From Burkholderiaceae bacterium (GTDB taxonomy: Bacteria; Pseudomonadota; Gammaproteobacteria; Burkholderiales; Burkholderiaceae_C): a stretch of 64,000 nucleotides of DNA. Shown here piece by piece: positions 6,537 through 52,906 of this stretch. The DNA is taken from NCBI GenBank assembly GCA_046348065.1, contig JAXMFA010000013.1, forward strand, positions 27,407 through 91,406, given 5' to 3'. Below the pieces are notes generated by a model. It was not told the DNA's origin and made no database searches. It saw only the letters and a list, made by a program, of their open reading frames with translations. The number at the start of each line of letters is the position of its first letter. The stretch's first letter is position 1. The position numbers and the translations under genes were made by a program.

Positions 6537-8072
6537 ATGAGCACCATCCGACTGAACCCCCTGGAAACCGCCTGGATCTTCACCGAGAGCCGGGCCACCC
6601 CCAACCACGTGGGCGGCCTGCTGCAGTTCCGCCTGCCCGAGGACGCGCCACGCGATTTCATGCGCCAGATGATGGCCGAGTTCCGCAACCATCGCACGTT
6701 CACGCCGCCGTGGAACCGGCGCCTGAAATACGCCTTCAACAAGAACCCGGCGCCGGTGTGGATCGAGGACGACGACATCGACCTCGAGTACCACGTGCGC
6801 CATGCGGCCCTGCCGTGGCCGGGCGGTGAGCGCGAACTGGGCGAACTGGTGGGGCGGCTGCAGAGCACGCCCCTGGACCTGATGCGCCCGCCCTGGGAGT
6901 GCACGCTGATCGAGGGGCTGGAGGGCAACCGCTTCGCGATGTTCATCAAGATGCACCACAGCCTGATCGACGGCATCAGCGGCATGAAGCTGCTGCAGCG
7001 CGCGATGTCGACCGACCGCCAGCGCAGCCTGGGACTGCCGCCTTTCTGGGCCAGCGGTTCACCACCTGCGTCCCGCGCGGGGCGGGAGCAGGCTCTGATG
7101 CCGACGATGGCCCATGCCGCCGAGGCCGCGGTGGCCGCGCTCAGCGGGCAGGCCCGCTCGCTGCCGCAGCTGGCGATGGCCTTCGGCAAGATTCTCAAGC
7201 GGGTGGGCGACCCGGGCGATGGCATGGTGGTGCCTTTTGTCGATTCGCCCCTGTCCGTCCTGAATGGGCGGGTGCGCGAGAAGCGGCGTTTTGCGACGCA
7301 GCAGTTCACGATGGAGCGCCTGCGCACGCTGGCCACCGCGGCTGGCGGCACGCTCAACGACGTGGTGCTGGCCATCTGTGGCGGAGCCTTGCGGCGCTTC
7401 CTGCTGGAACGCGACGAGTTGCCCGAACAGTCGCTGACCGCGGGGATTCCGGTATCAGTGCGGCCGGCCGACGACGAGGGCACCGGCAACGCGATCACCT
7501 TCATCATCGCCACGCTGGGCACCGACATCACCGGTGCCGCCGAGCGCTTCCAGGCTATCCGCCGATCGGTGCGCCACGCCAAGGAGCACGTGCAAAGCCT
7601 GCCGCGCCAGGCGATGGGGCAGTACACCGTGCTGCTGATGGCGCCCACCATCGTCACGCTGCTGACCGGCGTCGGTGGCCACACGCGGCCGATGTTCAAC
7701 ATCACGATCTCCAACGTGCCGGGCCCCGACAAGCCGCTGTACTTCCGCGGCGCCGAACTGCTGGCCACCTACCCGGCGTCCATCGTGACGCATGGCCAGG
7801 CGGTCAACATCACCTGCCAGAGCTACACCGGCAAGATGAATTTCGGCTACACCGGCTGTCACACCTCGGTGCCGCGCCTGCAACGGCTGGCGGTCTACAC
7901 CGCCGATGCGCTGGCCGAACTGGAAGCCGCCTTCCTGCCGCAGGCCGCCGCCAAGGCGGTGGCCCGATCGGCCCCGGCGTCGCGCAAGGCCGCCGCAAAG
8001 GCCAAGGCAAACCCCGCCAAAGTCGCCGCGCGCAGGCCGAAGGCTGCGGGCAAGACGGCCAAGGCCGCTTGA
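6537..8072 (+). CDS. wax ester synthase/diacylglycerol acyltransferase (WS/DGAT) family protein, paralogue 1, with Lys/Ala-rich tail
   Basis: HHSLIDGISG (HHxxxDG active site), NDVVLA and SNVPGP motifs. Tail is AAAKAVARSAPASRKAAAKAKANPAKVAARRPKAAGKTAKAA. Confidence 0.9.
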   Translation: MSTIRLNPLETAWIFTESRATPNHVGGLLQFRLPEDAPRDFMRQMMAEFRNHRTFTPPWNRRLKYAFNKNPAPVWIEDDDIDLEYHVRHAALPWPGGERELGELVGRLQSTPLDLMRPPWECTLIEGLEGNRFAMFIKMHHSLIDGISGMKLLQRAMSTDRQRSLGLPPFWASGSPPASRAGREQALMPTMAHAAEAAVAALSGQARSLPQLAMAFGKILKRVGDPGDGMVVPFVDSPLSVLNGRVREKRRFATQQFTMERLRTLATAAGGTLNDVVLAICGGALRRFLLERDELPEQSLTAGIPVSVRPADDEGTGNAITFIIATLGTDITGAAERFQAIRRSVRHAKEHVQSLPRQAMGQYTVLLMAPTIVTLLTGVGGHTRPMFNITISNVPGPDKPLYFRGAELLATYPASIVTHGQAVNITCQSYTGKMNFGYTGCHTSVPRLQRLAVYTADALAELEAAFLPQAAAKAVARSAPASRKAAAKAKANPAKVAARRPKAAGKTAKAA

Positions 8073-8179
8073 TACGGATTCGCCTTCAAACGTATAACTT
8101 CGTTGCTTCGCCTCGCCGTGCTACAGCACTGTCTTCGGCTTCGCGCCTTGTTCTACGCTTGAATGCAAACCCGTATGAG
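8071..8179 (+). repeat. R109 element copy 1 of 4 (109-bp element with imperfect terminal inverted repeats)
   Basis: gatacggattcgccttcaaacgta...gtgctacagcac...tacgcttgaatgcaaacccgtatgag. Near-identical copies at 31770, 36676 and 52798. Fills the gap between convergent genes and overlaps the TGA at 8070-8072. Confidence 0.9.
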
Positions 8180-8187
8180 TCGCCTGC

Positions 8188-8901
8188 TCAGGCCGGCGGC
8201 TCGATGCCGCGGTAGTTCGTCGATGCCGACTTGCAGATCGGGCAGGCGCCAGCCGGAACAGTGTTGACGGTCGAGCCACAGACCTGGCACACGTAGTAGC
8301 GGCCGGTCTTCTGGTCGATGGTGCGCGCCACCGTCTCGAAGAACGACGGCGCCCAGCGCAGGATCTGCTTGATGCGGTCGCGGTGCTGTTGCTCCGAGCC
8401 CCAGGCATAGCCGACGGCCGCGATTGCCTCCTCGACCCCCTCGGGCTTGATCTGCGCCAGCAGCCGCGGGTAGAAGGCGTCGATTGAGTGCATCTCGCCC
8501 TCGGCGGCGCGCAGCAGGTTGTCGCGGGTGTCGGTGGTGCGCAGCACCGGCTTGGGAAGCGGCTGCGGGTCGGCGCCGAGACGCGTCAGGATCTTGCCGA
8601 AGTTGGCGGCATGGACCTGCTCGGACGCCGAGAACGCGGTGAACAGGTAGGCGATGCCGTGGTAGCCCTCCTGCGTGGCGCGGCGGGCATAGTCGTTGTA
8701 TTGCAGGTAAACCGTGGTCTCGGTTTCGCGGGCAGCCTGCATGGCGGCCAGCGTGGCCGGGTAGGGAGGAGCGGGCCGCGCCACCTGCCACGCGGGCAGG
8801 GCCCCCAAGGCCGCAGCCGTCTGCAGGAGGCGGCGCCGGCTCACAGCCGGGGTCGGAGCAGCGCCAATCAGCGCAGTGAACAGCGGTCGGCGGGTCAGCA
8901 T
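8188..8901 (-). CDS. rubrerythrin-family diiron protein with Tat-type signal and C-terminal rubredoxin-like CxxC..CxxC
   Basis: ORF 8188..8970; ATG at 8901 preceded by GGAGGTG. SRRRLLQTAAALGA twin-arginine motif, two ExxH motifs (SEQVH, EGEMH), CQVCG...CPICK. Confidence 0.8.
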   Translation of the reverse strand: MLTRRPLFTALIGAAPTPAVSRRRLLQTAAALGALPAWQVARPAPPYPATLAAMQAARETETTVYLQYNDYARRATQEGYHGIAYLFTAFSASEQVHAANFGKILTRLGADPQPLPKPVLRTTDTRDNLLRAAEGEMHSIDAFYPRLLAQIKPEGVEEAIAAVGYAWGSEQQHRDRIKQILRWAPSFFETVARTIDQKTGRYYVCQVCGSTVNTVPAGACPICKSASTNYRGIEPPA

Positions 8902-9026
8902 GGTCACCTCCTTCGCGTCAATGCCTTCATTGAACGCCTCGACCGCGGGCGCCGTTGTGACCTGGATCAATCTCCGCGTGCGACCGGCGCCGGCGGCCGG
9001 GCGGGGCGCGCCGGTATAGTGATCCG

Positions 9027-10499: not shown

Positions 10500-10516
10500 T
10501 GACGAGGCCCCTGGAC

Positions 10517-10589
10517 GCCTTTTTTTTGCATGTTTTTCGATACTTCCCGGCGCCGGATGGGCACGGGCAGCTATCAAAATGGGAGTGAT
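10517..10589 (+). repeat. R65 dispersed intergenic element, copy b
   Basis: gccttttttttgcatg...cttcccggcgccggatgggcacgggcagctatcaaaatgggag. The T-run at its 5' end follows the RNB gene stop and may act as a terminator. Confidence 0.65.
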
Positions 10590-10682
10590 TCTGCGCAACA
10601 CTTGCTTGCTGCGCACGGTCATCCGAGTGTCATACCTAGGGAATACCCTAATAAATCTCCGTTTTCCCGGTATGCTACGCGC

Positions 10683-12092: not shown

Positions 12093-12113
12093 GCGGCCAG
12101 CACGCGACGGGCC

Positions 12114-13593: not shown

Positions 13594-13609
13594 GTTCAGT
13601 TGACAATTC

Positions 13610-14569
13610 ATGCAAGTAAAGAACCGCGCCGTGCTGGGCCAGATCAGCGACATGGACCTGCGCCTGCTGCGCGTGTTCCGCAGCGTGGTGGAGTGCGGCG
13701 GCATGGCGGCGGCGGAGCTGGAGCTCAACATCGCCACCAGCACCATCAGCCGCCACATCAAGGACCTGGAGACTCGCCTGGGCCTCACGCTGTGCCGGCG
13801 CGGGCGCGGCGGCTTTGCGCTGACGCCCGAGGGCGAGCGCATCCATGCCGAAACCCTGCGCCTGCTGGCCGCCACCGACGGTTTTCGCGCCAGCGTGGAC
13901 GATATCCACCAGCGCATGGGCGGCGAGTTGCACCTGGCCGTGTTCGACAAGACCGCCAGCAACCCCGAGGCCCACATCGCGCAGGCGGTGGCGCGGTTCC
14001 GGGCGCAGGCCCCCGAGGTCGCGCTGAACCTGCACGTGGGCTCGCTGAACCTGATCGAGCGCGGCGTGATGGACGGGCAGTTCCAGCTCGGCATCATCCC
14101 CGAGCACCGCCGCTCCGACAGCCTGGCCTACGACGAGCTGTTCGGCGAGACCATGCTGCTGTACTGCGGAGCCGGGCACCCGCTGTTCGGCGACGGTGCG
14201 GCCCCGCGGGACTGGGACAGCCTGCGCGCGCACGACTTCGCCGGCCTGGGCTACCACTCGCCCAACATGGAGATCGCACACCGCCAGCGCCTGCGCCGCG
14301 ATGCCACCGGCTTCGACCAGGAATCGGTGGCCACGCTGATCCTCAGTGGCCGGTTTCTGGGTTTTCTGCCCGACCACTACGCTGAAGCCTTCGTGCGCAC
14401 CGGACGCATGCGCGCGGTGCAGTCGGCGCTGTTCAACTACACCTGCCGCTTCTCGGCCATCACGCGCCGATCACCCGCGCCCTCACGGGCCACCGAGCTG
14501 CTGCGCGACAGCCTGGTGAAGGCCCACGGGAGTGGTCTGGGGCCAGATTTCACAAGCAAAATGGCCTGA
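13610..14569 (+). CDS. LysR family transcriptional regulator
   Basis: N-terminal wHTH (DLRLLRVFRSVVECGGMAAAELELNIATSTISRHIKDLE) plus a substrate-binding domain. Divergent from the aminotransferase gene. Confidence 0.9.
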   Translation: MQVKNRAVLGQISDMDLRLLRVFRSVVECGGMAAAELELNIATSTISRHIKDLETRLGLTLCRRGRGGFALTPEGERIHAETLRLLAATDGFRASVDDIHQRMGGELHLAVFDKTASNPEAHIAQAVARFRAQAPEVALNLHVGSLNLIERGVMDGQFQLGIIPEHRRSDSLAYDELFGETMLLYCGAGHPLFGDGAAPRDWDSLRAHDFAGLGYHSPNMEIAHRQRLRRDATGFDQESVATLILSGRFLGFLPDHYAEAFVRTGRMRAVQSALFNYTCRFSAITRRSPAPSRATELLRDSLVKAHGSGLGPDFTSKMA

Positions 14570-14609
14570 ACCCAGCACCGGATGGCCACGAGCCGCTATG
14601 AATTCAGGA
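14546..14609 (+). repeat. R65 dispersed intergenic element, copy c
   Basis: gatttcacaagcaaaatggcctgaacccagcaccggatggccacgagccgctatgaattcagga. Overlaps the last codons of the LysR gene. Confidence 0.65.
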
Positions 14610-14635
14610 TCGCTCAATCCCGTTACACTCAGCCC

Positions 14636-15068: not shown

Positions 15069-15416
15069 ATGAAACGTCTGTTTGCAACGTCGGTGCTGAC
15101 CGTGGTGGGCTTTGCCATCGCGCCCGCCCATGCGGTGGTGTATTGCAAGACCGTGGGGGTGCCCAAGGGCTGCGTGGCGCGTCCGGTTGCCGCACCCGGC
15201 GTCGGTTCCCCCGGTGTGGGCGTGGTGGACCCCGGCATCAACCAGCCCGGTGTGGCCGGCAACGTGGGCGCCGCCCGGGTGGGCGTGGGTGCGCCGGGTG
15301 TCGGCGTGGTCGATCCGGGCATCAACCAGCCGGGCGCCGCGGGCAATGTGGGCGTGCCGGGGGCGAGTCCGACCAACCTGAACGGTGGTGCGAACCGCGT
15401 GGGCGTTCGCCGCTGA
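15069..15416 (+). CDS. hypothetical exported Gly/Val/Pro-rich protein with internal tandem duplication
   Basis: Signal peptide MKRLFATSVLTVVGFAIAPAHA. GVGVVDPGINQPG(V/A)AGNVG occurs twice. Confidence 0.6.
   Translation: MKRLFATSVLTVVGFAIAPAHAVVYCKTVGVPKGCVARPVAAPGVGSPGVGVVDPGINQPGVAGNVGAARVGVGAPGVGVVDPGINQPGAAGNVGVPGASPTNLNGGANRVGVRR
15211..15354 (+). repeat. two diverged tandem units inside CDS 15069..15416
   Basis: Units at 15211..15270 and 15294..15354 encode the duplicated GVGVVDPGINQPGxAGNVG block. Confidence 0.7.
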
Positions 15417-25961: not shown

Positions 25962-26030
25962 GGGCGTTTTTTCGCATCGTATTGGCCGCTTCCCAGCGCC
26001 GGACGGCCACGAAGTGCTATGAAAAAAGGA
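25962..26030 (+). repeat. R65 dispersed intergenic element, copy e
   Basis: gggcgttttttcgcatcgtattggccgcttcccagcgccggacggccacgaagtgctatgaaaaaagga. Confidence 0.75.
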
Positions 26031-26152
26031 CTATCCAGAGGGTGCGGCGACGACGGTCTCGCCGTTGCGGCGCAGGGACAGAGCGCTTGCACAGTCAATA
26101 CAGGGCACAAGGCGACTGCTCGTCGACCAGTAACCGTCTCGGTCCAGGTGGC

Positions 26153-26734: not shown

Positions 26735-26754
26735 GGGCGTTTTCTCGCGTCAAT
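26735..26754 (+). repeat. R65 element copy f, left part (interrupted by IS30-family element)
   Basis: gggcgttttctcgcgtcaat aligns with the 5' part of copy e. Confidence 0.7.
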
Positions 26755-27811
26755 ATCTTGATTTCTAGTTCGAATCGCGACAGCGGCGACGCATGTCGGA
26801 TAGTACCTCTGCGGGGGTTTTGAAGCCCAGGCAGGCCCGAGGCCTGTGATTGAGCAGGTGTTCGATGCGGGCGATGCTTTGATGGGTCTGCAAGCTCAAA
26901 GGCTGACCCTTGGGGATGTACTGTCGGATCAGGCCGATGGTGTTCTCGTTGGTACCGCGTTGATTGGGTTGACGCGGATCGCAGACAAACAGGCGTGAGC
27001 CCAGCAAGGCTGGCAGGTGAGCGAACTCGCTGCCGCGGTCAACCGTGACGGTGTGCACCGGCCATGCGGCGTGCTGCAGCAAGGCACGGTTTGCCTGGTC
27101 AGCCATCGTGGCGGGCAAGGCATTGGGGGCCAGGCGCAGCCTGGTGAATCGGCTGGCGCGCTCCACGGCCACAAGCAGGCGCGGCTTGTAGAACCCGCGC
27201 AGCCCCACCATCGTGTCCATCTCCCAATGACCCAATTGCTCGCGCCGCAAGACATGATGTGGTCGCTCTCCGATGGGCCGTGCCTGAGCAGCCCATCCGC
27301 CACGACCCGCTTGCCGCTCGGCGCGGCGCAAAGGACGACGCTGACGAAGATGCCAATGGCGCTGGCACCAGGCGTAGATGGCTTGCCAGCTTGGGCAACA
27401 TTGTCCGCGCAGCCGTGCACGACCGGCAATCTGCTGCGGCGACCACTGGCTTTGCAGGCGCCGTCGCACGCGACGCCACAGGCGCGCCTCATGACGAGGT
27501 GCATTGGCGTTTGAGCGAGACGCGCAGGCCTTTCGATGAGCCTGTGCCTGCTTGGCACAGTACTGCGCAGGCGCGCAGCGCTTGAGTTCACGGTAAATGC
27601 TGCAGCGGTGGCGTCCCAGACGCCGGGCGATCTGATCGACTGAGAGCTGGCCGAGCAGCGTCTCAATCTGGTAGCGTTCGTGTTCGCTGAGATGGCATCG
27701 CATCACGGTCATTTCCTTTCAGTGTGGTAACTAAAAGGCTAGCCGCTCCTTGTCATCTCAGCCCTTCTTTCTGCGCCTGAGATCGTCGCGATTCGAACAA
27801 GAAACTAAGAT
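26755..27811 (-). mobile_element. IS30-family insertion sequence (about 1.06 kb) with 27-bp imperfect terminal inverted repeats
   Basis: Left end atcttgatttctagttcgaatcgcgac (26755-26781) versus the reverse complement of the right end, atcttagtttcttgttcgaatcgcgac (27785-27811). Single transposase ORF. Flanked by AT/ATAT. Confidence 0.88.
26765..27712 (-). CDS. IS30 family transposase
   Basis: N-terminal HTH (LSVDQIARRLGRHRCSIYRELKR), DDE region HWEMDT...TVDRGSEF...NENTIGLIRQY. Confidence 0.9.
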   Translation of the reverse strand: MTVMRCHLSEHERYQIETLLGQLSVDQIARRLGRHRCSIYRELKRCAPAQYCAKQAQAHRKACASRSNANAPRHEARLWRRVRRRLQSQWSPQQIAGRARLRGQCCPSWQAIYAWCQRHWHLRQRRPLRRAERQAGRGGWAAQARPIGERPHHVLRREQLGHWEMDTMVGLRGFYKPRLLVAVERASRFTRLRLAPNALPATMADQANRALLQHAAWPVHTVTVDRGSEFAHLPALLGSRLFVCDPRQPNQRGTNENTIGLIRQYIPKGQPLSLQTHQSIARIEHLLNHRPRACLGFKTPAEVLSDMRRRCRDSN

Positions 27812-27860
27812 ATGGCCGCTTTCGAGCGCCAGTCGGCCACGAGCCGCTATGAAAAAAGGA
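27812..27860 (+). repeat. R65 element copy f, right part
   Basis: atggccgctttcgagcgccagtcggccacgagccgctatgaaaaaagga. Shares the gctatgaaaaaagga variant with copy e. Confidence 0.75.
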
Positions 27861-27900
27861 CCGACCCGTCGCCAGGCCGGTCCTTGGTTTCTGCCCCGAA

Positions 27901-30246: not shown

Positions 30247-30394
30247 GAATGTCTCCGTGGTTGGCAATTTCAGTCAGCCACTGTAACGCCGGATGGGGCC
30301 GGCATTTCTTTTCCGACTGTTGGAAATGACCGACACCACGGTGGTTTTTCCGGTGCTACCGTCGCGCACTTTCCACGAAATTCACGCCCTCACC

Positions 30395-31771
30395 ATGCCC
30401 AAGACCCTGATCGAACCCTTCCGCATCAAGAGCATCGAACCCATCCGCATGACCAGCCGCGCCGAGCGTGAGCAGTTGCTGCAGGACGCGCACCTCAACG
30501 TCTTCAAGCTGCGCGCCGAGGACGTGCTGATCGACTGGCTCACCGACTCCGGCACCGGCGCCATGTCCAGCCGCCAGTGGGGCGCCATCATGGAAGGCGA
30601 CGAAAGCTACGCCGGGGCCCGCAGCTTCTACCGGCTGCAGGCCGTCGTGCAGCGCGTGACCGGCATGCAGCATTTCGTGCCCACCCACCAGGGCCGCGCG
30701 GCCGAGAAGGTGCTGTTCACCGCCGTCTGCAAGAAGGGCGACGTGGTGCCCAACAACTGCCACTTTGACACCACGCGCGCCAACCTCGAATACCTCGGCG
30801 TCGACGCCCGCGACCTGGTCATCGCCGAGGGCTTGCAGCCGGCGTTGGTCCATCCGTTCAAGGGCAACATCGACCTGGAGCGGGTGGAGGCGCTGCTGAA
30901 GGAGCACGGCGAGCGCATCCCCTTCGGCATGATCACCGTGACCAACAACACCGGCGGCGGCCAGCCGGTGTCGATGGCCAACATCCGCGCCTACGCGGCG
31001 CTGCTCAAGCGCCACGGCAAGCCCTTCATCATGGACGTGTGCCGCTTCTCGGAAAACGCCATGTTCATCAAGATGCGCGAGCCGGGCTACGAGAACACGC
31101 CGATCCGCGACATCGTGAAAGAAATGTTCAGCTACGCCGACGGCGCGACCATGAGCGCCAAGAAGGACGGCATGGTCAACATCGGTGGCTTCATCGTGCT
31201 GCGGGGCGAGCAGTGGATGGACGCGGTACGCAACGTGCTGATCCTCACCGAGGGCTTTCCCACCTACGGCGGCCTGGCCGGGCGCGACCTCGACGCGCTG
31301 GCGGTGGGGCTCGAAGAGGGCATGGACGAGGACTACCTGCGCTACCGCTTGCGCACCGCCGAATACCTGGGCGAGCGGCTCGAGGCGGCCGGCGTGGGCT
31401 TCGTGCGGCCCACGGGCGGCCACGCGGTGTACCTGGACGCGCGCACGGTGCTGCCCGACATGCCGGTGGCGCACTACCCGGCGTGGGCGCTGTGCAACGC
31501 GTTGTACCTGGAGGGCGGCATCCGCGGCGTCGAGATCGGCTCGGTGATGTTCGGCAAGCGCCTGCACGACGGCACCGAGACCTACCACAGCATGGAGCTG
31601 GTGCGCCTGGCGTTTCCGCGGCGCATGTACACGCAGAGCCACTTCGATTACGCGGCCGAGGTGATCGAGGAGGTCAAGCAGAAGGCCGCCCACATCCGCG
31701 GCGTGCGCATCACGAAGCAGCCGCCCTTCCTGCGGCACTTCACCTGCGAGTGCGCCTGGGTGGACGGCTGA
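30395..31771 (+). CDS. beta-eliminating lyase (tyrosine phenol-lyase / tryptophanase family)
   Basis: MPKTLIEPFRIKSIEP..., LTDSGTGAMS, GGQPVSMANIRA and SYADGATMSAKKDGMVNIGGF (PLP lysine region) closely follow recalled TPL/TnaA sequences. Confidence 0.88.
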   Translation: MPKTLIEPFRIKSIEPIRMTSRAEREQLLQDAHLNVFKLRAEDVLIDWLTDSGTGAMSSRQWGAIMEGDESYAGARSFYRLQAVVQRVTGMQHFVPTHQGRAAEKVLFTAVCKKGDVVPNNCHFDTTRANLEYLGVDARDLVIAEGLQPALVHPFKGNIDLERVEALLKEHGERIPFGMITVTNNTGGGQPVSMANIRAYAALLKRHGKPFIMDVCRFSENAMFIKMREPGYENTPIRDIVKEMFSYADGATMSAKKDGMVNIGGFIVLRGEQWMDAVRNVLILTEGFPTYGGLAGRDLDALAVGLEEGMDEDYLRYRLRTAEYLGERLEAAGVGFVRPTGGHAVYLDARTVLPDMPVAHYPAWALCNALYLEGGIRGVEIGSVMFGKRLHDGTETYHSMELVRLAFPRRMYTQSHFDYAAEVIEEVKQKAAHIRGVRITKQPPFLRHFTCECAWVDG

Positions 31772-31878
31772 TACGGATTCGCCTTCAAACGTATAACTTC
31801 GTTGCTTCGCCTCGCCGTGCTACAGCACTGTCTTCGGCTTCGCGCCTTGTTCTACGCTTGAATGCAAACCCGTATGAG
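31770..31878 (+). repeat. R109 element copy 2 of 4
   Basis: Identical to copy 1 over the positions compared by eye. Overlaps the lyase TGA stop (31769-31771). Fills the convergent intergenic gap. Confidence 0.9.
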
Positions 31879-31889: not shown

Positions 31890-33512
31890 TCATTTTGGCG
31901 CGTTGAGCCGTTTCACCCCGGCCACGAAGCGTGCCAGCGTGTCGGACAGCACGCCGGCGGGGATGGTGATGTCGATCAGCTGGAAGCGCCCGCGCGTGCC
32001 CATGGCGCGGTCGAGCGCGGCTTTCAGCTCCGCGCGCGTGTTCACTCGCACGCCGTCGCCGCCCAGGCCGGCGGCCATCTCGGCAAAGCCCCAGTGGCCC
32101 AGGTCGTTGAAACCGGATTCGGGCTGGAAGGTGCGCAGCATCTCCCAGCTCGCGTTGTTGAACACCAGCACGATCGGGTCCCAGCCGTAGCGTCGGCAGT
32201 TGCCCAGCTCCCAGCCGGTCATCTGGAAGGCGCCGTCGCCCACCAGGATCAGTGGGCGCTCCCCGGTGGCGGCCTGCAGGCCCAGACCGGCCGGCACGCC
32301 GAAACCCATGGTGGCGTAGTAGCCTGGCGCCACCAGCGCGGTGTGCCGGATCTCCATCGCGGTGAACAGGCAGTCGCCCATGTCGCTGGCCATCGGCATC
32401 TTGCCGTGCGCGGCCATCAGGTCGTTGACCGCGGTGGCGATGTCGGTCGGCGCGATGGGGGCGTCATCGGCCACCAATGCGTGCGGGAAGGCCGGCGGCT
32501 GCACCGCCAGCGGCTTTTCATCGGGACCCAGGCAGGCCAGCATGCGCTCGACGATGGCGGCCAGCGGCAGGTTCGAGTAGGTGTGGTAGCCGATGGTGAC
32601 GCGGCCGTCCAGCGCCTGGATCGTCTTGCGCATGTCGATCTTGGTCTGCGAGACGGCGAAGTTGGTGTCGCAGATGATCTCGCCGAGCAGGAACAGGCCG
32701 TCCGAACCCTCCACCAGCTCCGTGACCTCGGGAACGCCGGCCACGCCCATGTAGGTGCCCAGCAGCGGCACGTCCTGGTCGGCCAGCAGGCCGCGGCCCA
32801 TGAAGCTGGTGACCACCGGCACGCCCAGGCGGCGCGCCAGCTGGGCCACCTGCACCTCCAGCCCGTAGCGGCGCACCTCGACCCCGGCCATCAGCACCGG
32901 CGAGCGGGCGTGGGCCAGGCGCGCGAGGATCTCGTCCACGCAGGCGGCCAGCGCATCGGGATCCACCGGTTGCGGCGCCTGGGGCACGACCGGCGCGCAG
33001 GGCTCGTTCACCATGTCGCGCGGAATCTCGATGTAGACCGGCTCCGAGCGGCGCAGGCAGCTGGCCAGCACCCGGGCGATGTCGGCCGGCGCGCGTGCGG
33101 CGTCGTCCAGCCGCACCTGGTCGCAGGTGATCTCCTTGAAGATCTGGAACTGTGAATCGAGCGTCTTGGCCTGGTGGTGCAGCAGCAGCCCCGAGCGCGA
33201 TTCGCCCTGGCCGGGCCCGCCCGAGAGCACCACCAGCGGCGACTTTTCGGCAAAGGCCGCCGCGATCGAATTGATCATGTTCAGTGCGCCGGCGCCATAG
33301 GTGACGGCCGCCACGCCGAGGCTGCCATTGATGCGCGCCGAGGCGTCGGCCGCGAAGCCCACGCCCGGCTCGTGCGACAGCGTGTACAGCGGCAGGATCT
33401 TGGAGTCTTCGATGATGCGGAAGTAGGGCAGGGCGAAGTCGCCGGGGATGCCGAAGATCTGGCGCGCGCCATGGTCCTTGAGCGCGTGCAGCAGGGATTC
33501 GATGAGGTTCAT
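31890..33512 (-). CDS. thiamine-diphosphate-dependent alpha-keto acid decarboxylase (indolepyruvate/phenylpyruvate decarboxylase family)
   Basis: ATG at 33512 (MNLIESLLHALKDHGARQIFGIPGDF). TPP-binding GDGAFQMT...N motif. Confidence 0.85.
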   Translation of the reverse strand: MNLIESLLHALKDHGARQIFGIPGDFALPYFRIIEDSKILPLYTLSHEPGVGFAADASARINGSLGVAAVTYGAGALNMINSIAAAFAEKSPLVVLSGGPGQGESRSGLLLHHQAKTLDSQFQIFKEITCDQVRLDDAARAPADIARVLASCLRRSEPVYIEIPRDMVNEPCAPVVPQAPQPVDPDALAACVDEILARLAHARSPVLMAGVEVRRYGLEVQVAQLARRLGVPVVTSFMGRGLLADQDVPLLGTYMGVAGVPEVTELVEGSDGLFLLGEIICDTNFAVSQTKIDMRKTIQALDGRVTIGYHTYSNLPLAAIVERMLACLGPDEKPLAVQPPAFPHALVADDAPIAPTDIATAVNDLMAAHGKMPMASDMGDCLFTAMEIRHTALVAPGYYATMGFGVPAGLGLQAATGERPLILVGDGAFQMTGWELGNCRRYGWDPIVLVFNNASWEMLRTFQPESGFNDLGHWGFAEMAAGLGGDGVRVNTRAELKAALDRAMGTRGRFQLIDITIPAGVLSDTLARFVAGVKRLNAPK

Positions 33513-33702
33513 GCGGTGGGACTCCGGATGGTCAGGCAATCCGGGCATTGTGATGCGTCATGGACGCAGGATGCGATCGTTTGTTGGCTCGACCAATGCA
33601 TCTGGCGCAGGATTCCTGCATCGCCGGCCTGAGATCCGGTAGCCGGACGCTTGCCCGAACCTGTGTTGGTGCCGCCGAGGCCTCCAGCACGAGGACACGG
33701 TT

Positions 33703-33770
33703 CGCTTTTTTTTGGAAGAAACAGGCTTGAACCAGCGCCAATCGGCCACGAGACGCTCCCAAAACAGGAG
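33703..33770 (+). repeat. R65 dispersed intergenic element, copy g (diverged)
   Basis: cgctttttttttggaagaaacaggcttgaaccagcgccaatcggccacgagacgctcccaaaacaggag. Confidence 0.5.
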
Positions 33771-35207: not shown

Positions 35208-35417
35208 GGCGGTCTCGAAGTCGGTCGTGGTCGGGTGCCGCGCCTGCGGCCAGCCCTGTGACTGTACGCCACCGGCCGGCGCCCGCGCCAGCGTTTGCAG
35301 GCCGCCACGGCGCAACGGCCCTGGGACTTGTGGGTTGAATTCCCAACCGGTGCCGTTGCGACCGGCCGCCACTACACTGCCCGCTCCCCGCCTGTTCGCC
35401 ACCCCAGGAGCCGCACC

Positions 35418-36677
35418 GTGATCGACCAACCCCTGAAGCTGCCGTGCGGCCACACCCTGGCCAACCGCCTGTGCAAGGCGGCCATGACCGAAGGGCTGGC
35501 CGATGCGCACGACCATGCCACGCCCGCGCACCAGCGCCTGTACGCCACCTGGGCGCGCGGCGGTGCGGCGCTGCTGCTGAGCGGCAACATCATGGTGGAC
35601 CGGCGTTACCTCGAGCGCGCCGGCAACGTGGCGCTGGAGGACGGTGCGGACCTGGCATCGTTGCGGGCCTGGGCGCAGGTGGTGCGCGACGGCGGGTCGC
35701 AGCTGTGGGCTCAGATCAGCCATCCCGGCCGTCAGTGCCCGCGCCTGGTCAACGCGACGCCGCTGGCGCCATCGGTGGTGCAGCTGGAGCTGGCAGGCAA
35801 TTTCGGCCGGCCGCGCGCGGCCACCGAAGACGACATCCTCGACATCATCGGGCGCTTTGCCCGCACCGCCGCCTGGGTGCAGGAGGCGGGCATGGACGGT
35901 GTGCAGATCCATTCGGCACACGGCTATCTGCTGTCGCAGTTCCTGTCACCGCGCACCAACCGGCGGCAGGACCGCTGGGGCGGACCGTTGGAGAACCGCG
36001 CCCGGCTGCTGCTGGAGGTGGTGCGCGCGGTGCGCGCGCGGGTGGGGCCCGCGTATCCGGTGTCGGTGAAGCTCAATTCGTCGGATTTCGTGAAGGGCGG
36101 CTTCACGCTCGACGAGAGCCTGCAGGTGGTGCGCTGGCTCAACGACGAAAGTGTCGACCTGCTGGAGGTCTCCGGCGGCACCTACGAGCAGCTTGAATTC
36201 TTCAAGCCCCAGGCGGCGGCCGAACTGCGCGACAGCACCCGCGAGCGCGAGGCGATGTTCCTGCGCTATGCCAAGGCGATCAAGGCCGTGGCGCGCATGC
36301 CCATCATGGTGACCGGCGGCTTCCGCACCTTGGCCGGCATGCAGGCGGCGCTGGCCGGCGGTCACACCGACATGATCGGCCTGGCCCGGCCGTTCTGTCT
36401 GGACCCGGATTTTCCGGCGCGTTTGATGGCCGGCCAGCTGCAGCGGCTGCCGGTGCCGGAAGACCGGCTGGTGCTCGGAACCGGCTGGTGGGGCCCGAAC
36501 AGCCCGTCGGCGGTGGTGCGCGGCCTGAACAACCTGGCGCAGGGCGGCTGGTACGACCACCAGATCGAGCGGCTGGCCGTGGGCGCTGCGCCCGAGCCGG
36601 GCCTGGGCCCCTGGGACACGATGCTGGCGCACTTCGGCAAGGACCTGGGCCGCGCATTGCGGCGCAAGTTCGCCTGA
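35418..36677 (+). CDS. NADH:flavin oxidoreductase (Old Yellow Enzyme / 2,4-dienoyl-CoA reductase N-terminal type)
   Basis: GTG at 35418. LANRLCKAAMTEG, DGVQIHSAHGYLLSQFLSP, RWGGPLENRARL. Confidence 0.85.
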   Translation: MIDQPLKLPCGHTLANRLCKAAMTEGLADAHDHATPAHQRLYATWARGGAALLLSGNIMVDRRYLERAGNVALEDGADLASLRAWAQVVRDGGSQLWAQISHPGRQCPRLVNATPLAPSVVQLELAGNFGRPRAATEDDILDIIGRFARTAAWVQEAGMDGVQIHSAHGYLLSQFLSPRTNRRQDRWGGPLENRARLLLEVVRAVRARVGPAYPVSVKLNSSDFVKGGFTLDESLQVVRWLNDESVDLLEVSGGTYEQLEFFKPQAAAELRDSTREREAMFLRYAKAIKAVARMPIMVTGGFRTLAGMQAALAGGHTDMIGLARPFCLDPDFPARLMAGQLQRLPVPEDRLVLGTGWWGPNSPSAVVRGLNNLAQGGWYDHQIERLAVGAAPEPGLGPWDTMLAHFGKDLGRALRRKFA

Positions 36678-36784
36678 AACGGATTCGCCTTCAAACGTAT
36701 GACTTCGTTGCTTCGCCTCGCCGTGCTGCAGCACTGTCTTCGGCTTTGCGCCTTGTTCTACGCTTGAATGCAAACCCGTATGAA
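36676..36784 (+). repeat. R109 element copy 3 of 4 (variant)
   Basis: gaaacggattcgccttcaaacgtatgac...gtgctgcagcac...cccgtatgaa. A few substitutions relative to copies 1, 2 and 4. Overlaps the OYE TGA stop. Confidence 0.88.
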
Positions 36785-36790
36785 GTGCCG

Positions 36791-37009
36791 TCAGTAATGC
36801 GGCGGGCGCTCGTCGCGCAGGCTGCGGAAAGCGGCCGCGTCGCCCGTGGGCATCTGCTCGCGCAGGCGGCCGATCTCGCGGATCAACGCGTCGATCTGCG
36901 CCTGCTGGCGCACGATGACCTGGTTGAGCTGGTCCATCAGGTCGTCGGCGAAGCTGGCCTTGATCTCCAGCTCGGTCAGGCGCCGGGCGGTGTCGTCGTC
37001 GGGCGTCAC
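36791..37009 (-). CDS. slyX: SlyX family protein
   Basis: GTG at 37009 overlapping the upstream stop (GTGA). RLTELEIKASFADDLMDQLNQVIVRQQAQIDAL coiled coil is typical of SlyX. Confidence 0.7.
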   Translation of the reverse strand: MTPDDDTARRLTELEIKASFADDLMDQLNQVIVRQQAQIDALIREIGRLREQMPTGDAAAFRSLRDERPPHY

Positions 37010-39360: not shown

Positions 39361-39364
39361 TCGT

Positions 39365-41081: not shown

Positions 41082-41145
41082 GATTTTCAGGTCGAATCAG
41101 CCATATCCCAACGCCAAATGGCCACTGGCCGCTATCAAATCAGGA
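41082..41145 (+). repeat. R65 dispersed intergenic element, copy h
   Basis: gattttcaggtcgaatcagccatatcccaacgccaaatggccactggccgctatcaaatcagga. Confidence 0.65.
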
Positions 41146-41156
41146 CTTCATGGCCA

Positions 41157-42114: not shown

Positions 42115-42283
42115 CTCAGAGGCTGAGAGGGAATTGGGCGTGCCCGAAAGGGCGCCCCAAAGAACCGCCGGCAAGGCGCAAAGCACAGCCGTAGCTCGGG
42201 CTACGGCGCGCATTTGCAACGCCGGCGGCGGTGTTTTGGGGCGTCAAGGCGGGCATGACCGATTTCCTCTCAGCCTCTCAGAG
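42115..42283. repeat. long imperfect palindrome (about 170 bp) with central GC hairpin; single copy in window
   Basis: Left arm ctcagaggctgagagggaattgggcgtgcccg..ccccaaagaaccgccggc pairs with right arm gccggcggcggtgttttggggcg..cgggcatgaccgatttcctctcagcctctcagagg. Centre is gccgtagc-tcgg-gctacggc (42188-42207). The right arm covers the stop codon at 42278. Confidence 0.75.
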
Positions 42284-43750
42284 GTAGCCCAGCAGGCGCC
42301 ACCAGACGCCGCCCACGATCACGAGCACCGCGAGGTTGACCACGCTGAGCACGGCGCCGGCGGCCCACCATTCGTTCAGCGTGGTGTAGCCCGAGCCGAA
42401 GATGATGGGCGCGGTGCCGGTGCCGTAGTGGGTCAGCGACATCATCAGCGAGGACGAAAACGCCAGCAGCAGCGCCAGCAGCATCGGCGGCGCCCCCAGT
42501 GCGACGCCGGCGGCGAAGAAGGCGCCGAACATGGCCGTGATGTGGGCCGTGGTGCTGGCGAAGAAGTAGTGCGCGTAGAAGTAGATCAGCACCAGCACCG
42601 CGGTGGCGCCCATCCAGCCCAGGCCCAGGCCCGTGATGCCGGTCTGGATCGACTGCGAGAACCACGCGATCAGGCCCAGTTTGCCCAGGAAGGTGGCCAT
42701 CATCACCAGCGCGGCGAACCAGACCAGGGTGTCCCAGGCGCTTTTCGCCTTCAGGATGTCTTCCCACTCCAGCACGCCGCAGAGAATGAGCAGCGACAGG
42801 CCGATCAGCGCGGTGGTGGTGGCATTGAGGTCGTAGGCCGGGCCCAGCAGCAGCGCGGGCACGCCGGCCCACATGAGCAGCATCAGCGCCAGCACGCCCA
42901 GCGTCACGTGCTCCGAGGGCTTCATCGGCCCCAGCTTGTCGAGCTCTTTCAGTGCCATGCCTTTGGCGTCGGGCGTGTTCCTGATCTCGGGCGGAAACAG
43001 CGCGTACAGCACCAGCGGCATCAGCAGCAGCATCACCAGCCCCGGCAGCAGCGCGGCCAGCGCCCACTGGGTCCAGGTGATCTGGATCGCGGAATTCGTG
43101 CCCTTGGCGATCAGGTCGACGATCAGCGGGTTGGGCGCGGTGGCCGTGATGAACATGGCCGAGGTGATCGGGTTGGTGTTGTAGTTCACCAGGGCCAGGT
43201 AGCGGCCGATCTTGTTTTGGGTGCCCCGGTCCGGGCTGGAGCCGAAACCATCGGCGATGGAGCGCATCACCGGGTGGATGATCGCGCCGCCGCGCGCGGT
43301 GTTGCTGGGCGTGACCGGCGCGATCACCAGCTCCGACAGCACCAGCCCGTAGGCCACGCCGACCGACTTCTTGCCGAACAGCGCGATGAAGTGGTAGCCG
43401 ATGCGCGTGCCCAGGCCGGTCTTGGTCAGCGCGATGGCGATCATCACCGCGATCGCGATCAGCCAGATCAGCGGGTTGGCGAAGCCGCTCAGCGCATCAA
43501 GGATCGCGCCCTCGGGCTTGCCGGGGCGGGTGACCTCGGTGATGGCCACCAGCGCGATCGCGATGATCGACACCGCGCCGATGGGCAGGGCCTTGCCGAT
43601 GATGGCCGCGATGGTGCCGGCGAACAGCGCCAGCAGGTGCCAGGCCTCTGGCGTGACCTTCTCGGGCACGGGGATGACGAACCAGATCAACAGCCCGATG
43701 CCGAGGGCGATGGCGGTGGGCAGCGGTTTGGGAAAGGTGAGCGGGTTCAT
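42278..43750 (-). CDS. DASS/SLC13 family anion:sodium symporter (anion permease)
   Basis: ATG at 43750 (MNPLTFPKP) with GGAG RBS. Multi-TM, with the SNTARGGAI motif characteristic of DASS hairpins. Confidence 0.85.
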   Translation of the reverse strand: MNPLTFPKPLPTAIALGIGLLIWFVIPVPEKVTPEAWHLLALFAGTIAAIIGKALPIGAVSIIAIALVAITEVTRPGKPEGAILDALSGFANPLIWLIAIAVMIAIALTKTGLGTRIGYHFIALFGKKSVGVAYGLVLSELVIAPVTPSNTARGGAIIHPVMRSIADGFGSSPDRGTQNKIGRYLALVNYNTNPITSAMFITATAPNPLIVDLIAKGTNSAIQITWTQWALAALLPGLVMLLLMPLVLYALFPPEIRNTPDAKGMALKELDKLGPMKPSEHVTLGVLALMLLMWAGVPALLLGPAYDLNATTTALIGLSLLILCGVLEWEDILKAKSAWDTLVWFAALVMMATFLGKLGLIAWFSQSIQTGITGLGLGWMGATAVLVLIYFYAHYFFASTTAHITAMFGAFFAAGVALGAPPMLLALLLAFSSSLMMSLTHYGTGTAPIIFGSGYTTLNEWWAAGAVLSVVNLAVLVIVGGVWWRLLGYL

Positions 43751-43783
43751 GCGGGGCTCCAAAGGGGCAGCAAGACGGTGTCG

Positions 43784-46586: not shown

Positions 46587-46598
46587 GATGCGACTCCT

Positions 46599-47825: not shown

Positions 47826-47838
47826 AAGGGGCCTGGAA

Positions 47839-47906
47839 GGGCGTTTTCGAGGTGTTATTGGCCTCTTTCCAGCGTCGGATGGCCACGGGCCGCTATCAGA
47901 TCAGGA
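47839..47906 (+). repeat. R65 dispersed intergenic element, copy i
   Basis: gggcgttttcgaggtgttattggcctctttccagcgtcggatggccacgggccgctatcagatcaggag. Its 3' end contains the stop (47901-47903) of the minus-strand kinase gene. Confidence 0.8.
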
Positions 47907-49391
47907 GTGATCGGCGCCGGGCAAGGGGGTCTTGCGGCGCGCTGCCAGGCCCGCCAGTGCCAGCGCATGCACGTTCACCCGCGCGCGCAACCGGATCGCC
48001 AGCAGGTACAGGCCGCCGAACTTGCGCTGCAGCAGCATGGCGTCGGACGGTGGCAGCTGCCAGAAGTCGCGGTCCAGGCCCAGTGCGATGCCGCGCTCGC
48101 GCAGGCGCACGAGCACGTCGGAGCTGCCGAAGTCATACGGGCCTTCGAGCGTGAAGGGCTCCAGCGCCATCTCGCCCATGTCGAGCACGGTCTGGCGATG
48201 GCGGTCTTCGGTGGCGGCGTCGTAGTAGCCGATGGCCAGCGCGGCGGTGTGCATCTGCTCGCGGTCGCGGGCCATCGCGCCTTTGATCAGGCGGCGGAAA
48301 TCCTGGCTCATAGAGGCCTTGAACGGCCGGGTGGCGCCGAAGTCGAGCAGGATCAGCCGCCCCGTTTCGGGCTCGAAGCGGTAGTTGGCGAAGTTCGGGT
48401 CGGTCTGGACCAGGCGGAACTCGAACAGCTCGCGCAGCAGCAGCGCGAACAGCAGGGTCATGACGCGGTCGCGCTCGGCCTGTGGCGCATCCACCAGCGT
48501 TTCGATCGGCACGCCCCCGACCCGCGTCATGGCCAGCACCCGCGCGGTGGTCAGCTCGGCGTGCAGGCGCGGCAGCGTGTAATCGGGCGCGTCGGCCAGC
48601 AGCTCGCCATAGCGGCTCAGGTAGCCGGCCTCGCGCAGGTAGTCGGCCTCGTCGTGAAGCTGGCGCTTGGCGTCGCGCAGCAGGGGTGCGAGGTCCAGCG
48701 CCTTGGGCAGCAGGCCCGACATCCGCAGCAGCGCGGCCACGTTGTCCACGTCGCTGTCGATGCTCTCCACCACGCCGGGATACTGGATCTTGATCGCGAG
48801 GTCGTGCCCGTCGCGGGTCAGCGCGCGGTGCACCTGGCCGATGGAGGCCGCGGCCAACGGGGTCCAGTGGAAGCGCCTGAAGCCTTGCTCCCAGCCGGCG
48901 CCCCATTGTTCGTCGAGCACGCTTTTGACCTGGGCCCTGGGCATGGCGCGGGCGTCGGAGCGCAGCCGCCCCAGAATCTCGGCCAGCGCCGGGGGCAGCA
49001 GGTCGGCCGATTCCATCGAGACCAGCTGGCCGACCTTCATCGCCGCACCCCGCAGCTTGGCCAGCTGGTCGGCCATGCGGCGCGCGTTGGCCGGCGTCAG
49101 CAGCAGGTCTTTCATGGCCGGGCGTTGGCCCTGCGCCAGCCGGCGCGCGCCCTCGGCGACCATGCCGCCGGCGATGCCGGTGGCCATCCAGCCCAGCCGC
49201 GCCAGGCGGGCGCCGCGGCCGCCCGGCACGGCCAGCGTGGGCGCGGGGTTTTCCGGGGTGTGTTCGTCGGGCAAGCGGGTATCCTCGGTGGGCGGCGAAG
49301 CGGGTGGGTCGATGATGGCCCATGCCAGGGGTGCCGGGTGTCCCCGATTCTCCGATTTCTCCGATTCATCGGCCGAAACCCGGCCTTTCAA
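47901..49391 (-). CDS. ABC1/AarF/UbiB atypical kinase family protein
   Basis: KLRGAAMKVGQLVS, AAASIGQVHRA, LAIKIQYPGV and DPNFANY motifs. The true start may be downstream of 49391. Confidence 0.85.
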   Translation of the reverse strand: MKGRVSADESEKSENRGHPAPLAWAIIDPPASPPTEDTRLPDEHTPENPAPTLAVPGGRGARLARLGWMATGIAGGMVAEGARRLAQGQRPAMKDLLLTPANARRMADQLAKLRGAAMKVGQLVSMESADLLPPALAEILGRLRSDARAMPRAQVKSVLDEQWGAGWEQGFRRFHWTPLAAASIGQVHRALTRDGHDLAIKIQYPGVVESIDSDVDNVAALLRMSGLLPKALDLAPLLRDAKRQLHDEADYLREAGYLSRYGELLADAPDYTLPRLHAELTTARVLAMTRVGGVPIETLVDAPQAERDRVMTLLFALLLRELFEFRLVQTDPNFANYRFEPETGRLILLDFGATRPFKASMSQDFRRLIKGAMARDREQMHTAALAIGYYDAATEDRHRQTVLDMGEMALEPFTLEGPYDFGSSDVLVRLRERGIALGLDRDFWQLPPSDAMLLQRKFGGLYLLAIRLRARVNVHALALAGLAARRKTPLPGADHS

Positions 49392-49421
49392 GCGCCCGCA
49401 GCGGGCATGGGGAGCGTCCTG

Positions 49422-51845: not shown

Positions 51846-51873
51846 GCGTCTCGATGTCAGACCCGCGCGCGGG

Positions 51874-52791
51874 ATGCCCATGGCGTTGATCCAGCCGCCC
51901 CGATTGCTGCCCGTGCTGGCGGCGACGGTCGGGCTGTTTCGCCATCGACGCTCGGGGCTGAACGATCCGGCGGCGTTGCCGCGCATCGAGCGTTCGCTGG
52001 CGGGTGCCACGCTGGACGCCGACTGGCTCGCGGCTTACCGCGCCAGCGTGGGCTTGCCGGTGGAGCCGGCACTGCCGCCGCTGGCGCTGCAGATCGCGGC
52101 CGCGCCGCTGCACATGGCCATCCTGGGCGATCCGCGCTTTCCGTTTCGGGCCCTGGGCCTGGTGCACCTCACGCAGCGCATCACGCAGACCGCGCCGATG
52201 CCGGCGGACGCGCGCTTCGAACTGCGCGCCTTCTGCGCCGACGGGCGCTGGGAAAAGCGGGGCATGAGCTTTGGCCTGGTGACCGAGGCCATCGTCGAAG
52301 GCGCGCGGGTCTGGCGGGGCGAGACCCGTGCGCTGGCACCGGGCAAGACACAGGCGCTGGTGTCGGCATCGGCGGATTCCTCCGTGGCGGCCGAAGAACC
52401 GGCGGGCGTTTGCGGGTGCGACCAGGTGCTGTCGGTCGCGGAATCCACTGGCCGCCGCTATGCCGCCATCGCGGGCGACCTGAACCCGATCCACCAGCAC
52501 GCGCTGCTGGCGCGCCTGTTCGGCTTTCGGCGCGCGATCGTGCACGGCACCTGGACGCTGGCCCGCGCCCTCGCCGTGGCGGGGCTGCCGGATGCCCCGG
52601 CGTTCACACTGGACGCACGCTTCCGCCGGCCGGTGGAACTGCCGTCCGACATCCGGGTGCGCGCGTGGAGCGGTGCACCCGCTGGCCCCGGCCTGCCGCC
52701 CGGCGGGGCGCACCGGGTGTGGGTGAGTTCGCAGTCCAGCGGCAAGCTCTGCCTGGATATCGACCTGCAGGCATCCCCGGCCGCGTCCTGA
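51874..52791 (+). CDS. MaoC-like (hot-dog fold) dehydratase domain protein
   Basis: YAAIAGDLNPIHQHALLARLFGFRRAIVHGTW hydratase motif in the C-terminal half. Confidence 0.75.
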   Translation: MPMALIQPPRLLPVLAATVGLFRHRRSGLNDPAALPRIERSLAGATLDADWLAAYRASVGLPVEPALPPLALQIAAAPLHMAILGDPRFPFRALGLVHLTQRITQTAPMPADARFELRAFCADGRWEKRGMSFGLVTEAIVEGARVWRGETRALAPGKTQALVSASADSSVAAEEPAGVCGCDQVLSVAESTGRRYAAIAGDLNPIHQHALLARLFGFRRAIVHGTWTLARALAVAGLPDAPAFTLDARFRRPVELPSDIRVRAWSGAPAGPGLPPGGAHRVWVSSQSSGKLCLDIDLQASPAAS

Positions 52792-52797
52792 GCCGCT

Positions 52798-52906
52798 CAT
52801 ACGGATTCGCCTTCAAACGTATAACTTCGTTGCTTCGCCTCGCCGTGCTACAGCACTGTCTTCGGCTTCGCGCCTTGTTCTACGCTTGAATGCAAACCCG
52901 TATCAG
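52798..52906 (+). repeat. R109 element copy 4 of 4
   Basis: catacggattcgcc...cccgtatcag. The terminal tca (52903-52905) is the stop codon of the minus-strand M23 gene. Confidence 0.9.

Follow-up and report, generated by a model that had tools for sequence, protein, structure and literature searches.

R109, a recently mobile miniature inverted-repeat element with a Correia-type core at gene ends of a Burkholderiaceae bacterium

In pathogenic Neisseria, Correia elements influence how genes are expressed, by way of promoters, phase variation and RNase III sites. They have been called 'unique to the Neisseria spp.' in a review (PMC5039591), and for no transposase has movement of Correia-type elements been demonstrated experimentally (PMC2229807). 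Among insertion sequences (IS), the IS1031 group of the IS5 family has been reported to prefer TNA targets and to leave exclusively a 3-bp repeat, which was TGA in the cited case (PMC12016507). Here we describe R109, a repeat with four copies in a 64,000-nucleotide stretch of a Burkholderiaceae bacterium (contig JAXMFA010000013.1 of assembly GCA_046348065.1; hereafter the window), and compare it with these systems. By sequence comparison, R109 is a Correia-type core carried between GC-rich arms, with a TNA duplication, in Burkholderiales. We hold with good confidence that R109 is a mobile Correia-core MITE (miniature inverted-repeat transposable element) that duplicates TSA (S being G or C), is likely served in trans by an IS5/IS1031-like enzyme, and owes its pattern at gene ends to target and selection.

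All four copies in the window were on the plus strand and each was found inside a gap between convergent genes. This arrangement of near-identical copies in one orientation had been proposed by a first-pass annotation made from the sequence alone, and it was borne out by the coordinates and by Pfam support for all eight flanking genes. The gene pairs at copies 1 to 4 were WS/DGAT acyltransferase and rubrerythrin-like, beta-eliminating lyase and TPP enzyme, Oxidored_FMN and SlyX, and MaoC dehydratase and peptidase M23, respectively. The copies aligned without gaps over 8070-8178 and the three equivalent places, and the 20-mers of both arms had four exact matches each in the window as compared to 0.00-0.01 expected by chance. 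The element had been described as 109 bp long; the repeat is real, but the unit is 103 bp (TACGG...CCGTA) with a 3-bp direct repeat on each side, and the earlier frame was shifted by one base. Copies 1, 2 and 4 were identical across the 103 bp, with copy 3 differing at four positions. Imperfect terminal inverted repeats of 22-27 bp (TACGGATTCGCCTTCAAACGTA / TACGCTTGAATGCAAACCCGTA) enclose a core of ~54 bp, and the central gtgct-ac-agcac hairpin was present as annotated (Table 1). R109 is within the size range of MITEs (under ~300 bp) and has no coding capacity: 103 bp is too short for a transposase, and stops occur in four of the six frames, with two frames open.

Further copies of R109 were gathered by one GTDB genome scan and one metagenome scan, giving 13 distinct insertion sites including those in the window. 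The GTDB scan with the left-arm 20-mer, in which the source genome was not among the representatives, returned six loci, two of which were chance matches to coding sequence in Methylobacter. At 13 of 13 sites the trinucleotides on the two sides had the same central base (seven TGA/TGA, six TCA/TCA), and only G or C was found at this position. The base preceding the duplication was C at 10 sites and the base after it was G at 11. The flanks of R109 are a 3-bp target-site duplication (TSD) within a C-T(G/C)A-G target.

Empty alleles for the window copies were read from public metagenome assembly contigs of closely related strains aligned to the window. At copy 1 (joint from 8069 to 8176, runs X3 and X18), copy 2 (31768 to 31875, run X25) and copy 4 (52796 to 52903, runs X3 and X5) exactly 106 nt were skipped, with 3 nt fitting both sides. 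At copy 3, a ~97% identical strain (run X5) joined 36674 to 36787 with GGATAG replacing TGA, the element and TGAAGT, a net change of -106 nt. All four insertions are polymorphic and therefore recent. The read depth over R109 was 12-26 times that of its flanks, corresponding to roughly 12-26 copies per genome equivalent. Inverted repeats, a 3-bp TSD, high copy number and precise empty alleles for four of four window copies demonstrate that R109 is a MITE, non-coding and recently active. The earlier label 'MITE/REP-like' stands in its first half; the REP half does not agree with a 103-bp unit and a 3-bp TSD.

When R109 was compared with PLSDB by blastn, two N. gonorrhoeae records were matched with 85.7% identity over 56 nt (E 1e-6). 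The match is a classical short Correia element, TA-TAGTGGATTAAATTTAAACCAG...CTGATTTAAATTTAATCCACTA-TA, flanked by TA and found at no fewer than 40 places in its record. Both records (NZ_CP119140.1 and NZ_CP119142.1, 2.17 Mb) are filed as plasmids in PLSDB and chromosome-like in size, which is the sole reason that the Correia match surfaced in this database. Local alignment of R109 and Correia scored 68 against 14.3 +/- 2.4 for shuffled sequences (z 22.8), in one relative orientation only, and the arms were collinear in a MAFFT alignment. A hidden Markov model (HMM) of the core detected both elements and no additional diverged copies among the collected DNA. R109 is without the 26-bp Correia terminal repeat TATAGTGGATTAAATTTAAA(T/C)CAG, of which about 16 of 27 positions can be aligned by eye (TA, GGATT, TT, AAAC, GTA). 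Taken together, the alignments show homology of the R109 core, and more weakly of its arms, to the Correia elements of Neisseria. A large MITE survey from 2024 was clustered at 95% identity and would miss this relation (PMC11602168), and the phrase 'Correia-like' had no match in the literature searched.

The same core was found with other arms in a Massilia litorea plasmid element (arms GAGCGCCTAACAAAACCGCC, TSD TTA in CTTAG, z 14.3), in Eleftheria terrae and Ralstonia replicons, and in viral contigs of 43-65% GC, which had at least four arm types besides that of classical Correia; several of the families were prophage-borne. Contigs from the same wastewater metagenomes (X3, X5 and X9, at window 8101-8152, 31800-31851 and 52828-52879) had a core at least 88% identical but other arms, for example GATACGGCTTCGCATTCAACGCG / CGCATTGAATGCGAAACCGTATGA, CATGAGGCTTCGCATTCGACACG and GTAATTCGGCTTTAAATCATCCGTGTCGTT, and thus several sister subfamilies coexist in wastewater communities. 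These alignments show R109 as a member of a wider betaproteobacterial set of MITEs with a common core and different arms. In a metagenome-assembled genome (MAG) of an uncultured beta proteobacterium (locus L004), an R109-like left arm, GGCGGATTCGCCTTCAAACGTATCACTGCGTTGCTT, was observed at 6434-6480 directly 3' of a TGA stop; no right arm was recognised in this locus, and the sequence may be a relative that has been truncated or rearranged. The window also contains a second MITE (Table 1), which was not detected by the core HMM. Its pairwise alignment with the Massilia element gave a z of 6.7, and it has relatives in Variovorax, Cupriavidus and Ralstonia replicons. It is possibly related to the Massilia/Variovorax-type members, with a core orientation that would be opposite to that of R109.

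The sister families point to a candidate enzyme class. Roseomonas mucosa and Pandoraea have an ~860-bp element, annotated there as IS5 family, whose ends were 92-96% identical to the Massilia-type arms. The Roseomonas IS has TTA/TTA flanks in CTTAG and encodes DUF4096 and DDE_Tnp_1 in two overlapping frames. R109 itself showed the exclusive 3-bp TNA duplication of the IS1031 group at its 13 sites. R109 is most likely moved in trans by an IS5/IS1031-like DDE transposase. The link between R109, Correia and IS5-family ends is a useful lead and possibly an unreported one.

Next we considered why R109 is found at gene ends. The first-pass annotation had stated that the element donates stop codons. 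The TGA of the plus-strand gene does adjoin the element in copies 1 to 3, and the TCA at the end of copy 4 is the stop of the M23 gene, as it had described. However, these stops are duplicated T-S-A targets and not element sequence, because both flanks of each copy carry matching TGA or TCA. The g-to-c change assumed for copy 4 is likewise not a mutation of the element but a different duplicated target, the left flank also being TCA. The other spacer had been given as 10 nt or less, which holds for copies 1, 3 and 4 but not for copy 2 (Table 1).

Over the 13 sites, the TSD was the stop codon of a gene with high GC content at third codon positions (GC3) at 10. The orientation of R109 relative to the occupied gene was unbiased, with seven TGA-type sites (entered from the left) and six TCA-type sites (from the right). 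The duplications outside stop codons were L018 (within a tandem pair, 5 nt past a stop) and L019 (in a divergent region), and L021 was ambiguous. About seven sites were convergent, three to four tandem, one divergent and one unknown; at the tandem sites L009, L018 and L023 the element was just upstream of a ribosome-binding site. Of the 38 genes called in the window, TGA is the stop of 35 and CTGAG the terminal sequence of 10. Unoccupied CTSAG sites in the window numbered 9 at stop codons and at most 18 in other non-coding DNA, the latter an overestimate as the gene list is incomplete. Each of the four TNA trinucleotides reads as a stop codon on one strand or the other (TAA and TGA directly, TTA and TCA as reverse complements), which makes stop codons natural neutral landing sites for a TNA-duplicating group. 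Relatives were also found on stops: the TTA of the Eleftheria element is the TAA stop of a DUF3325 gene, and the TCA of the Variovorax element is the TGA stop of an acyl-CoA dehydrogenase gene. Most of the stop-codon pattern can be explained by target availability combined with selection against insertions that fall in genes or promoters.

Alternatively, stop codons could be actively targeted, by a transposase or cofactor that reads a 3'-end feature beyond C-TSA-G. Such 'stop-codon homing' would fit the 10 of 13 R109 sites, the second window MITE and the Eleftheria and Variovorax relatives, and up to 18 free non-coding CTSAG sites in the window alongside the 9 at stop codons also speak for it. 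We regard it as unlikely, since two or three R109 sites are off stop codons and yet in the C/G-TGA-G context (L018, L019 and possibly L021), and the examined Massilia and Cupriavidus copies are mid-spacer. The enrichment over availability is also modest, and selection against promoter-region insertions would give the same pattern.

R109 had also been proposed to be a bidirectional terminator. In this explanation it would be kept as a functional terminator or insulator for convergent pairs that lack one, acting through a hairpin in minus-strand RNA. In agreement with this, the four window copies are in convergent gaps with pre-insertion spacers of 5-12 nt and no terminator, 7 of the 13 sites are convergent, and the minus-strand hairpin is strong (see below). 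However, no U-tract follows the stem on either strand (flanks CCCGTATGAG and ATCCGTATCA), and an intrinsic-terminator scan of 7900-8350 gave 0 terminator-like sites. Copies were also found in tandem gene pairs and a divergent region, and the four window sites are polymorphic, with R109 absent in close relatives. The convergent pairs of the window without R109 were 94 nt apart, 21 nt apart or overlapping by 13 nt; such close spacing of convergent genes is thus normal in this genome and does not demand a supplied terminator. Moreover, RNA-seq contigs contained the whole of R109 contiguous with more than 1 kb of flank, which is consistent with read-through, these contigs being unstranded, breaking at repeats and not allowing ends to be mapped. 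A terminator role is accordingly quite improbable, and we do not retain this part of the earlier interpretation. No sigma-70-like promoter consensus was found in a scan around copy 1. Rfam gave no gathering-score match in the window, and for R109 and the Correia copy only chance-level matches at E up to 10.

The first-pass annotation placed the functional fold on the minus strand. The pairing that it reported for the 23-nt termini was reproduced (19 of 23 positions on the plus strand, 22 of 23 with G:U pairs on the minus strand); for the arms, the plus strand has Watson-Crick pairs at 18 of 22 positions and the minus strand, with G:U included, is paired at 21 of 22. As RNA, the minus strand of R109 was predicted to fold with a minimum free energy of -45.9 kcal/mol (z -5.9) in comparison to -31.9 kcal/mol (z -2.6) for the plus strand. 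The core-minus strand was predicted to be the more stable as RNA in eight of eight families, by 0.6 to 15.3 kcal/mol, and these families are not independent because the core is shared by descent. Within the R109 arms, each of the three transition mismatches is A.C/C.A on plus and thus becomes G:U on minus; wobbles recur at the same two arm positions, with swapped bases, in a sister subfamily. We considered G:U asymmetry as a rule for the whole superfamily and rejected it: it is present in the outer arms of R109, the sister subfamily and some others, and the whole-element sums over eight families (33 on minus, 25 on plus) did not differ significantly. Mismatched positions on the core-plus strand were pyrimidine-pyrimidine 81 times and purine-purine 16 times. 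Both halves of the core are pyrimidine-rich on one strand, and the other strand gives purine internal loops of the GAA/GAA type. The robust strand asymmetry is this pyrimidine/purine bias, which the shared core carries. The fold of the minus strand is the better one, but a strand-specific RNA role is unsupported by the placement of R109, because its orientation with respect to the occupied gene is unbiased. That the four window copies share an orientation was not significant (p = 0.125), and neither was the GC-skew trend, which was weak and noisy at this scale.

A single-stranded DNA route, in which a tyrosine/HUH transposase in the style of REP/RAYT or IS200/IS605 recognises a hairpin and moves R109, would explain the strand asymmetry, the single window orientation and arms that vary yet stay complementary, and it would agree with the better fold of the core-minus strand as DNA (-21.2 vs -12.2 kcal/mol, the direction being the same in all four families tested), with arm mismatches that are G:T on the minus strand in three of three cases and recur in the sister subfamily, and with a locus GC skew that is positive in the element orientation at most sites, though not significantly; we consider it highly improbable, because a 3-bp duplication with a site-variable central base is the signature of a DDE staggered double-strand cut, HUH single-strand transposons make no target duplication, the arms of a sister family are the ends of an IS5-family DDE element, and the asymmetry lies mainly in the core bias and not in G:U totals. 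No RAYT gene was reported for R109; it was looked for only via the window repeat survey.

Some observations weigh against our view of R109 as a Correia-core MITE moved by an IS5/IS1031-like enzyme. No autonomous IS with R109-type ends (TACGGATTCGCC) was found in the window, PLSDB or four metagenome assemblies. In the window, the arm patterns with up to 3 mismatches returned only the four copies, and an inverted-repeat survey gave an unrelated IS30-family IS and the second MITE. The blastn comparison of R109 with PLSDB gave no arm-only matches, and in the four metagenome assemblies, searched on the left arm, there was no contig in which this arm was followed by diverging internal sequence. R109 is at present an orphan, like Correia, and because no parent IS was found the assignment of the transposase rests on the TSD type and the sister families. 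R109 also ends in TACGG without the initial GAG of the IS5-linked sister families. Across families and orders, conservation is stronger in the core than in the arms, the reverse of what would be predicted for a purely transposase-driven MITE. With a rough null for availability set at ~0.45, the excess of stop occupancy (10 of 13) was modest (binomial p of about 0.02, calculated by hand with an incomplete gene list). Finally, the evidence for transcription consists of unstranded assembled metatranscriptome contigs, which may contain DNA.

Based on these results, R109 inserts into C-T(G/C)A-G by a 3-nt staggered cut, and repair of the stagger gives the duplicated TGA (TCA on the other strand) that is seen on both sides. 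A large part of the usable targets are stop codons, because of the frequency of TGA and CTGAG at gene ends given above, and an insertion exactly on a stop is harmless because the duplication rebuilds it. Copies 1 to 3 landed on the TGA of the plus-strand gene and copy 4 on the TCA (that is, TGA) of the minus-strand gene, the stop being restored by duplication each time. Purifying selection would then clear insertions inside genes and promoters, so that the copies left are those at the 3' ends of genes, above all in convergent gaps. R109 would be transcribed within neighbouring mRNAs, as the RNA-seq assemblies suggest, and by analogy with Correia its long hairpin could serve as an RNase III substrate or 3'-end stabiliser.

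A broader proposal is put forward tentatively. The ~50-nt Correia core (CGTTGC..CGCC..GCCGTRC-loop-GYACTGTCTKCGGC..CGCCTTG) may define a MITE superfamily of Neisseriales and Burkholderiales, with hosts of 43-68% GC, in which the arms would be interchangeable and the core would be a constrained, strand-asymmetric functional module. Its members would use TA or TNA as targets, with the stops among TNA sites serving as safe harbours, and the IS5-family link of the GAG-ended members could point to the Correia transposase.

Table 1. Positions in the window of the R109 copies, the genes at their ends, the second MITE and the 49-nt repeat.
Feature	Position	Strand	Remarks
R109 copy 1, body	8073-8175	+	103 bp; arms 8073-8100 and 8155-8175
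R109 copy 1, conserved Correia-type core	8101-8154	+	
R109 copy 1, central hairpin GTGCTACAGCAC	8118-8129	+	
R109 copy 1, left TSD TGA	8070-8072	+	Stop codon of WS/DGAT gene 6537-8072 (+)
R109 copy 1, right TSD TGA	8176-8178	+	Followed by a 9-nt spacer and the stop (8188-8190) of rubrerythrin-like gene 8188-8970 (-)
R109 copy 2, body	31772-31874	+	Identical to copy 1
R109 copy 2, TSD TGA	31769-31771 and 31875-31877		Left TGA is the stop of beta-eliminating lyase gene 30293-31771 (+)
TPP-enzyme gene	31890-33548	-	12 nt beyond the right TSD of copy 2
R109 copy 3, body	36678-36780	+	4 differences from copy 1; first base A, not T
R109 copy 3, TSD TGA	36675-36677 and 36781-36783		Left TGA is the stop of Oxidored_FMN gene 35295-36677 (+)
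slyX stop	36791-36793	-	7 nt beyond the right TSD of copy 3
R109 copy 4, body	52800-52902	+	Identical to copy 1
R109 copy 4, TSD TCA	52797-52799 and 52903-52905		Right TCA is the stop of peptidase M23 gene 52903-53931 (-)
MaoC gene	51874-52791	+	Separated by 5 nt from the left TSD of copy 4
Second MITE	42119-42277	-	159 bp; arms GAGGCTGAGAGGGAATT.../...AATTCCCTCTCAGCCTC
Second MITE, TSD TCA	42116-42118 and 42278-42280		Right TCA is the stop of DASS transporter gene 42278-43762 (-)
49-nt repeat, copies	4692-4740, 10537-10585, 14562-14610, 25983-26031, 27813-27861, 33722-33770, 41098-41146, 47859-47907, 53950-53998, 60656-60704	+	

Other repeats were also observed in the window. A 49-nt repeat (consensus about TTCCCAGCGYCGGATGGCCACG....GCTATSA....AGGA) has 10 copies, roughly one every 6 kb and all on the plus strand whatever the gene orientation. 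A T-run resembling a terminator tail precedes most of them, the repeat had no Rfam match at gathering score, and a similar stretch was seen in the betaproteobacterial MAG mentioned above (L004, 6645-6690). An insertion sequence of ~1.07 kb at 26747-27819 has 35-nt inverted repeats and a 315-aa open reading frame (26765-27712, minus strand) with an HTH_38 domain, and looks like a member of the IS30 family; it is in the part of the window with the lowest GC, and its arms are unrelated to those of R109. A tandem array at 56780-57397, between two called genes, has a periodicity of ~72-73 / 145 nt, with six copies of a 110-nt unit at 61-81% identity. At 15198-15354 two 73-nt units, 84 nt apart and 81% identical, lie in a G/C-rich stretch that would encode Gly/Pro/Val-rich repeats.

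For annotation, these results mean that a TNA-duplicating element can occupy a TGA or TAA stop exactly and regenerate it, and that repeats filling a gap should not be read as terminators or as parts of genes. The IS5-family ends of the core-sharing sister families offer a candidate enzyme class for Correia-type elements, and a homologous Correia core in environmental Burkholderiales extends the family to another order.

Among the known systems, a bidirectional intrinsic terminator has in common with R109 a GC-containing hairpin between convergent genes, whereas R109 has no U-tract, has a stem of about 45 pairs with internal loops, and is a mobile repeat that is absent at the same sites in relatives. 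REP/BIME and ERIC sequences, hairpin repeats located in enterobacterial and pseudomonad 3' untranslated regions, are likewise palindromic and multi-copy; they build up after stops and in the gaps of convergent pairs, and are transcribed together with the gene upstream. However, REPs are 20-40 nt long, make no target duplication and are linked to RAYT, in comparison to the 103 bp and 3-bp TSD of R109, and ERIC duplicates TA and has no sequence in common with R109. MITEs of the IS1031 group of the IS5 family resemble R109 in the exclusive 3-bp T-N-A duplication in a C-TNA-G context, and the core-sharing sister MITEs of Massilia, Eleftheria and Ralstonia have arms identical to the ends of the ~860-bp IS5-family IS with DUF4096, DDE_Tnp_1 and a TTA duplication. 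The arms of R109 differ in matching no IS examined and in starting with TACGG and not GAG, and the central base of its TSD is only G or C.

R109 has much in common with the Correia elements (CREE/NEMIS). The body of the short Correia form and that of R109 are both 103 bp between the duplicated bases, and the 54-56-nt core is homologous at 85.7%, in collinear position and in the same orientation. The central hairpin is kept with a compensatory change (GTGC/GCAC in R109, GTAC/GTAC in Correia). Both have a long arm-formed hairpin, partly alignable arms (TA-GGATT-TT-AAAC-GTA), high copy number, T..A insertion targets and no known parent transposase. In contrast, the arms of R109 are GC-rich, unlike the 26-bp Correia repeat, and R109 duplicates 3 bp (TGA/TCA) where Correia duplicates TA. 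A long form (~155 bp) with an IHF site was not seen for R109, nor was a sigma-70-like promoter at its ends. The host of R109 is not Neisseria but a Burkholderiales of activated sludge and wastewater (Burkholderiaceae, Ramlibacter-like) with 68% GC.

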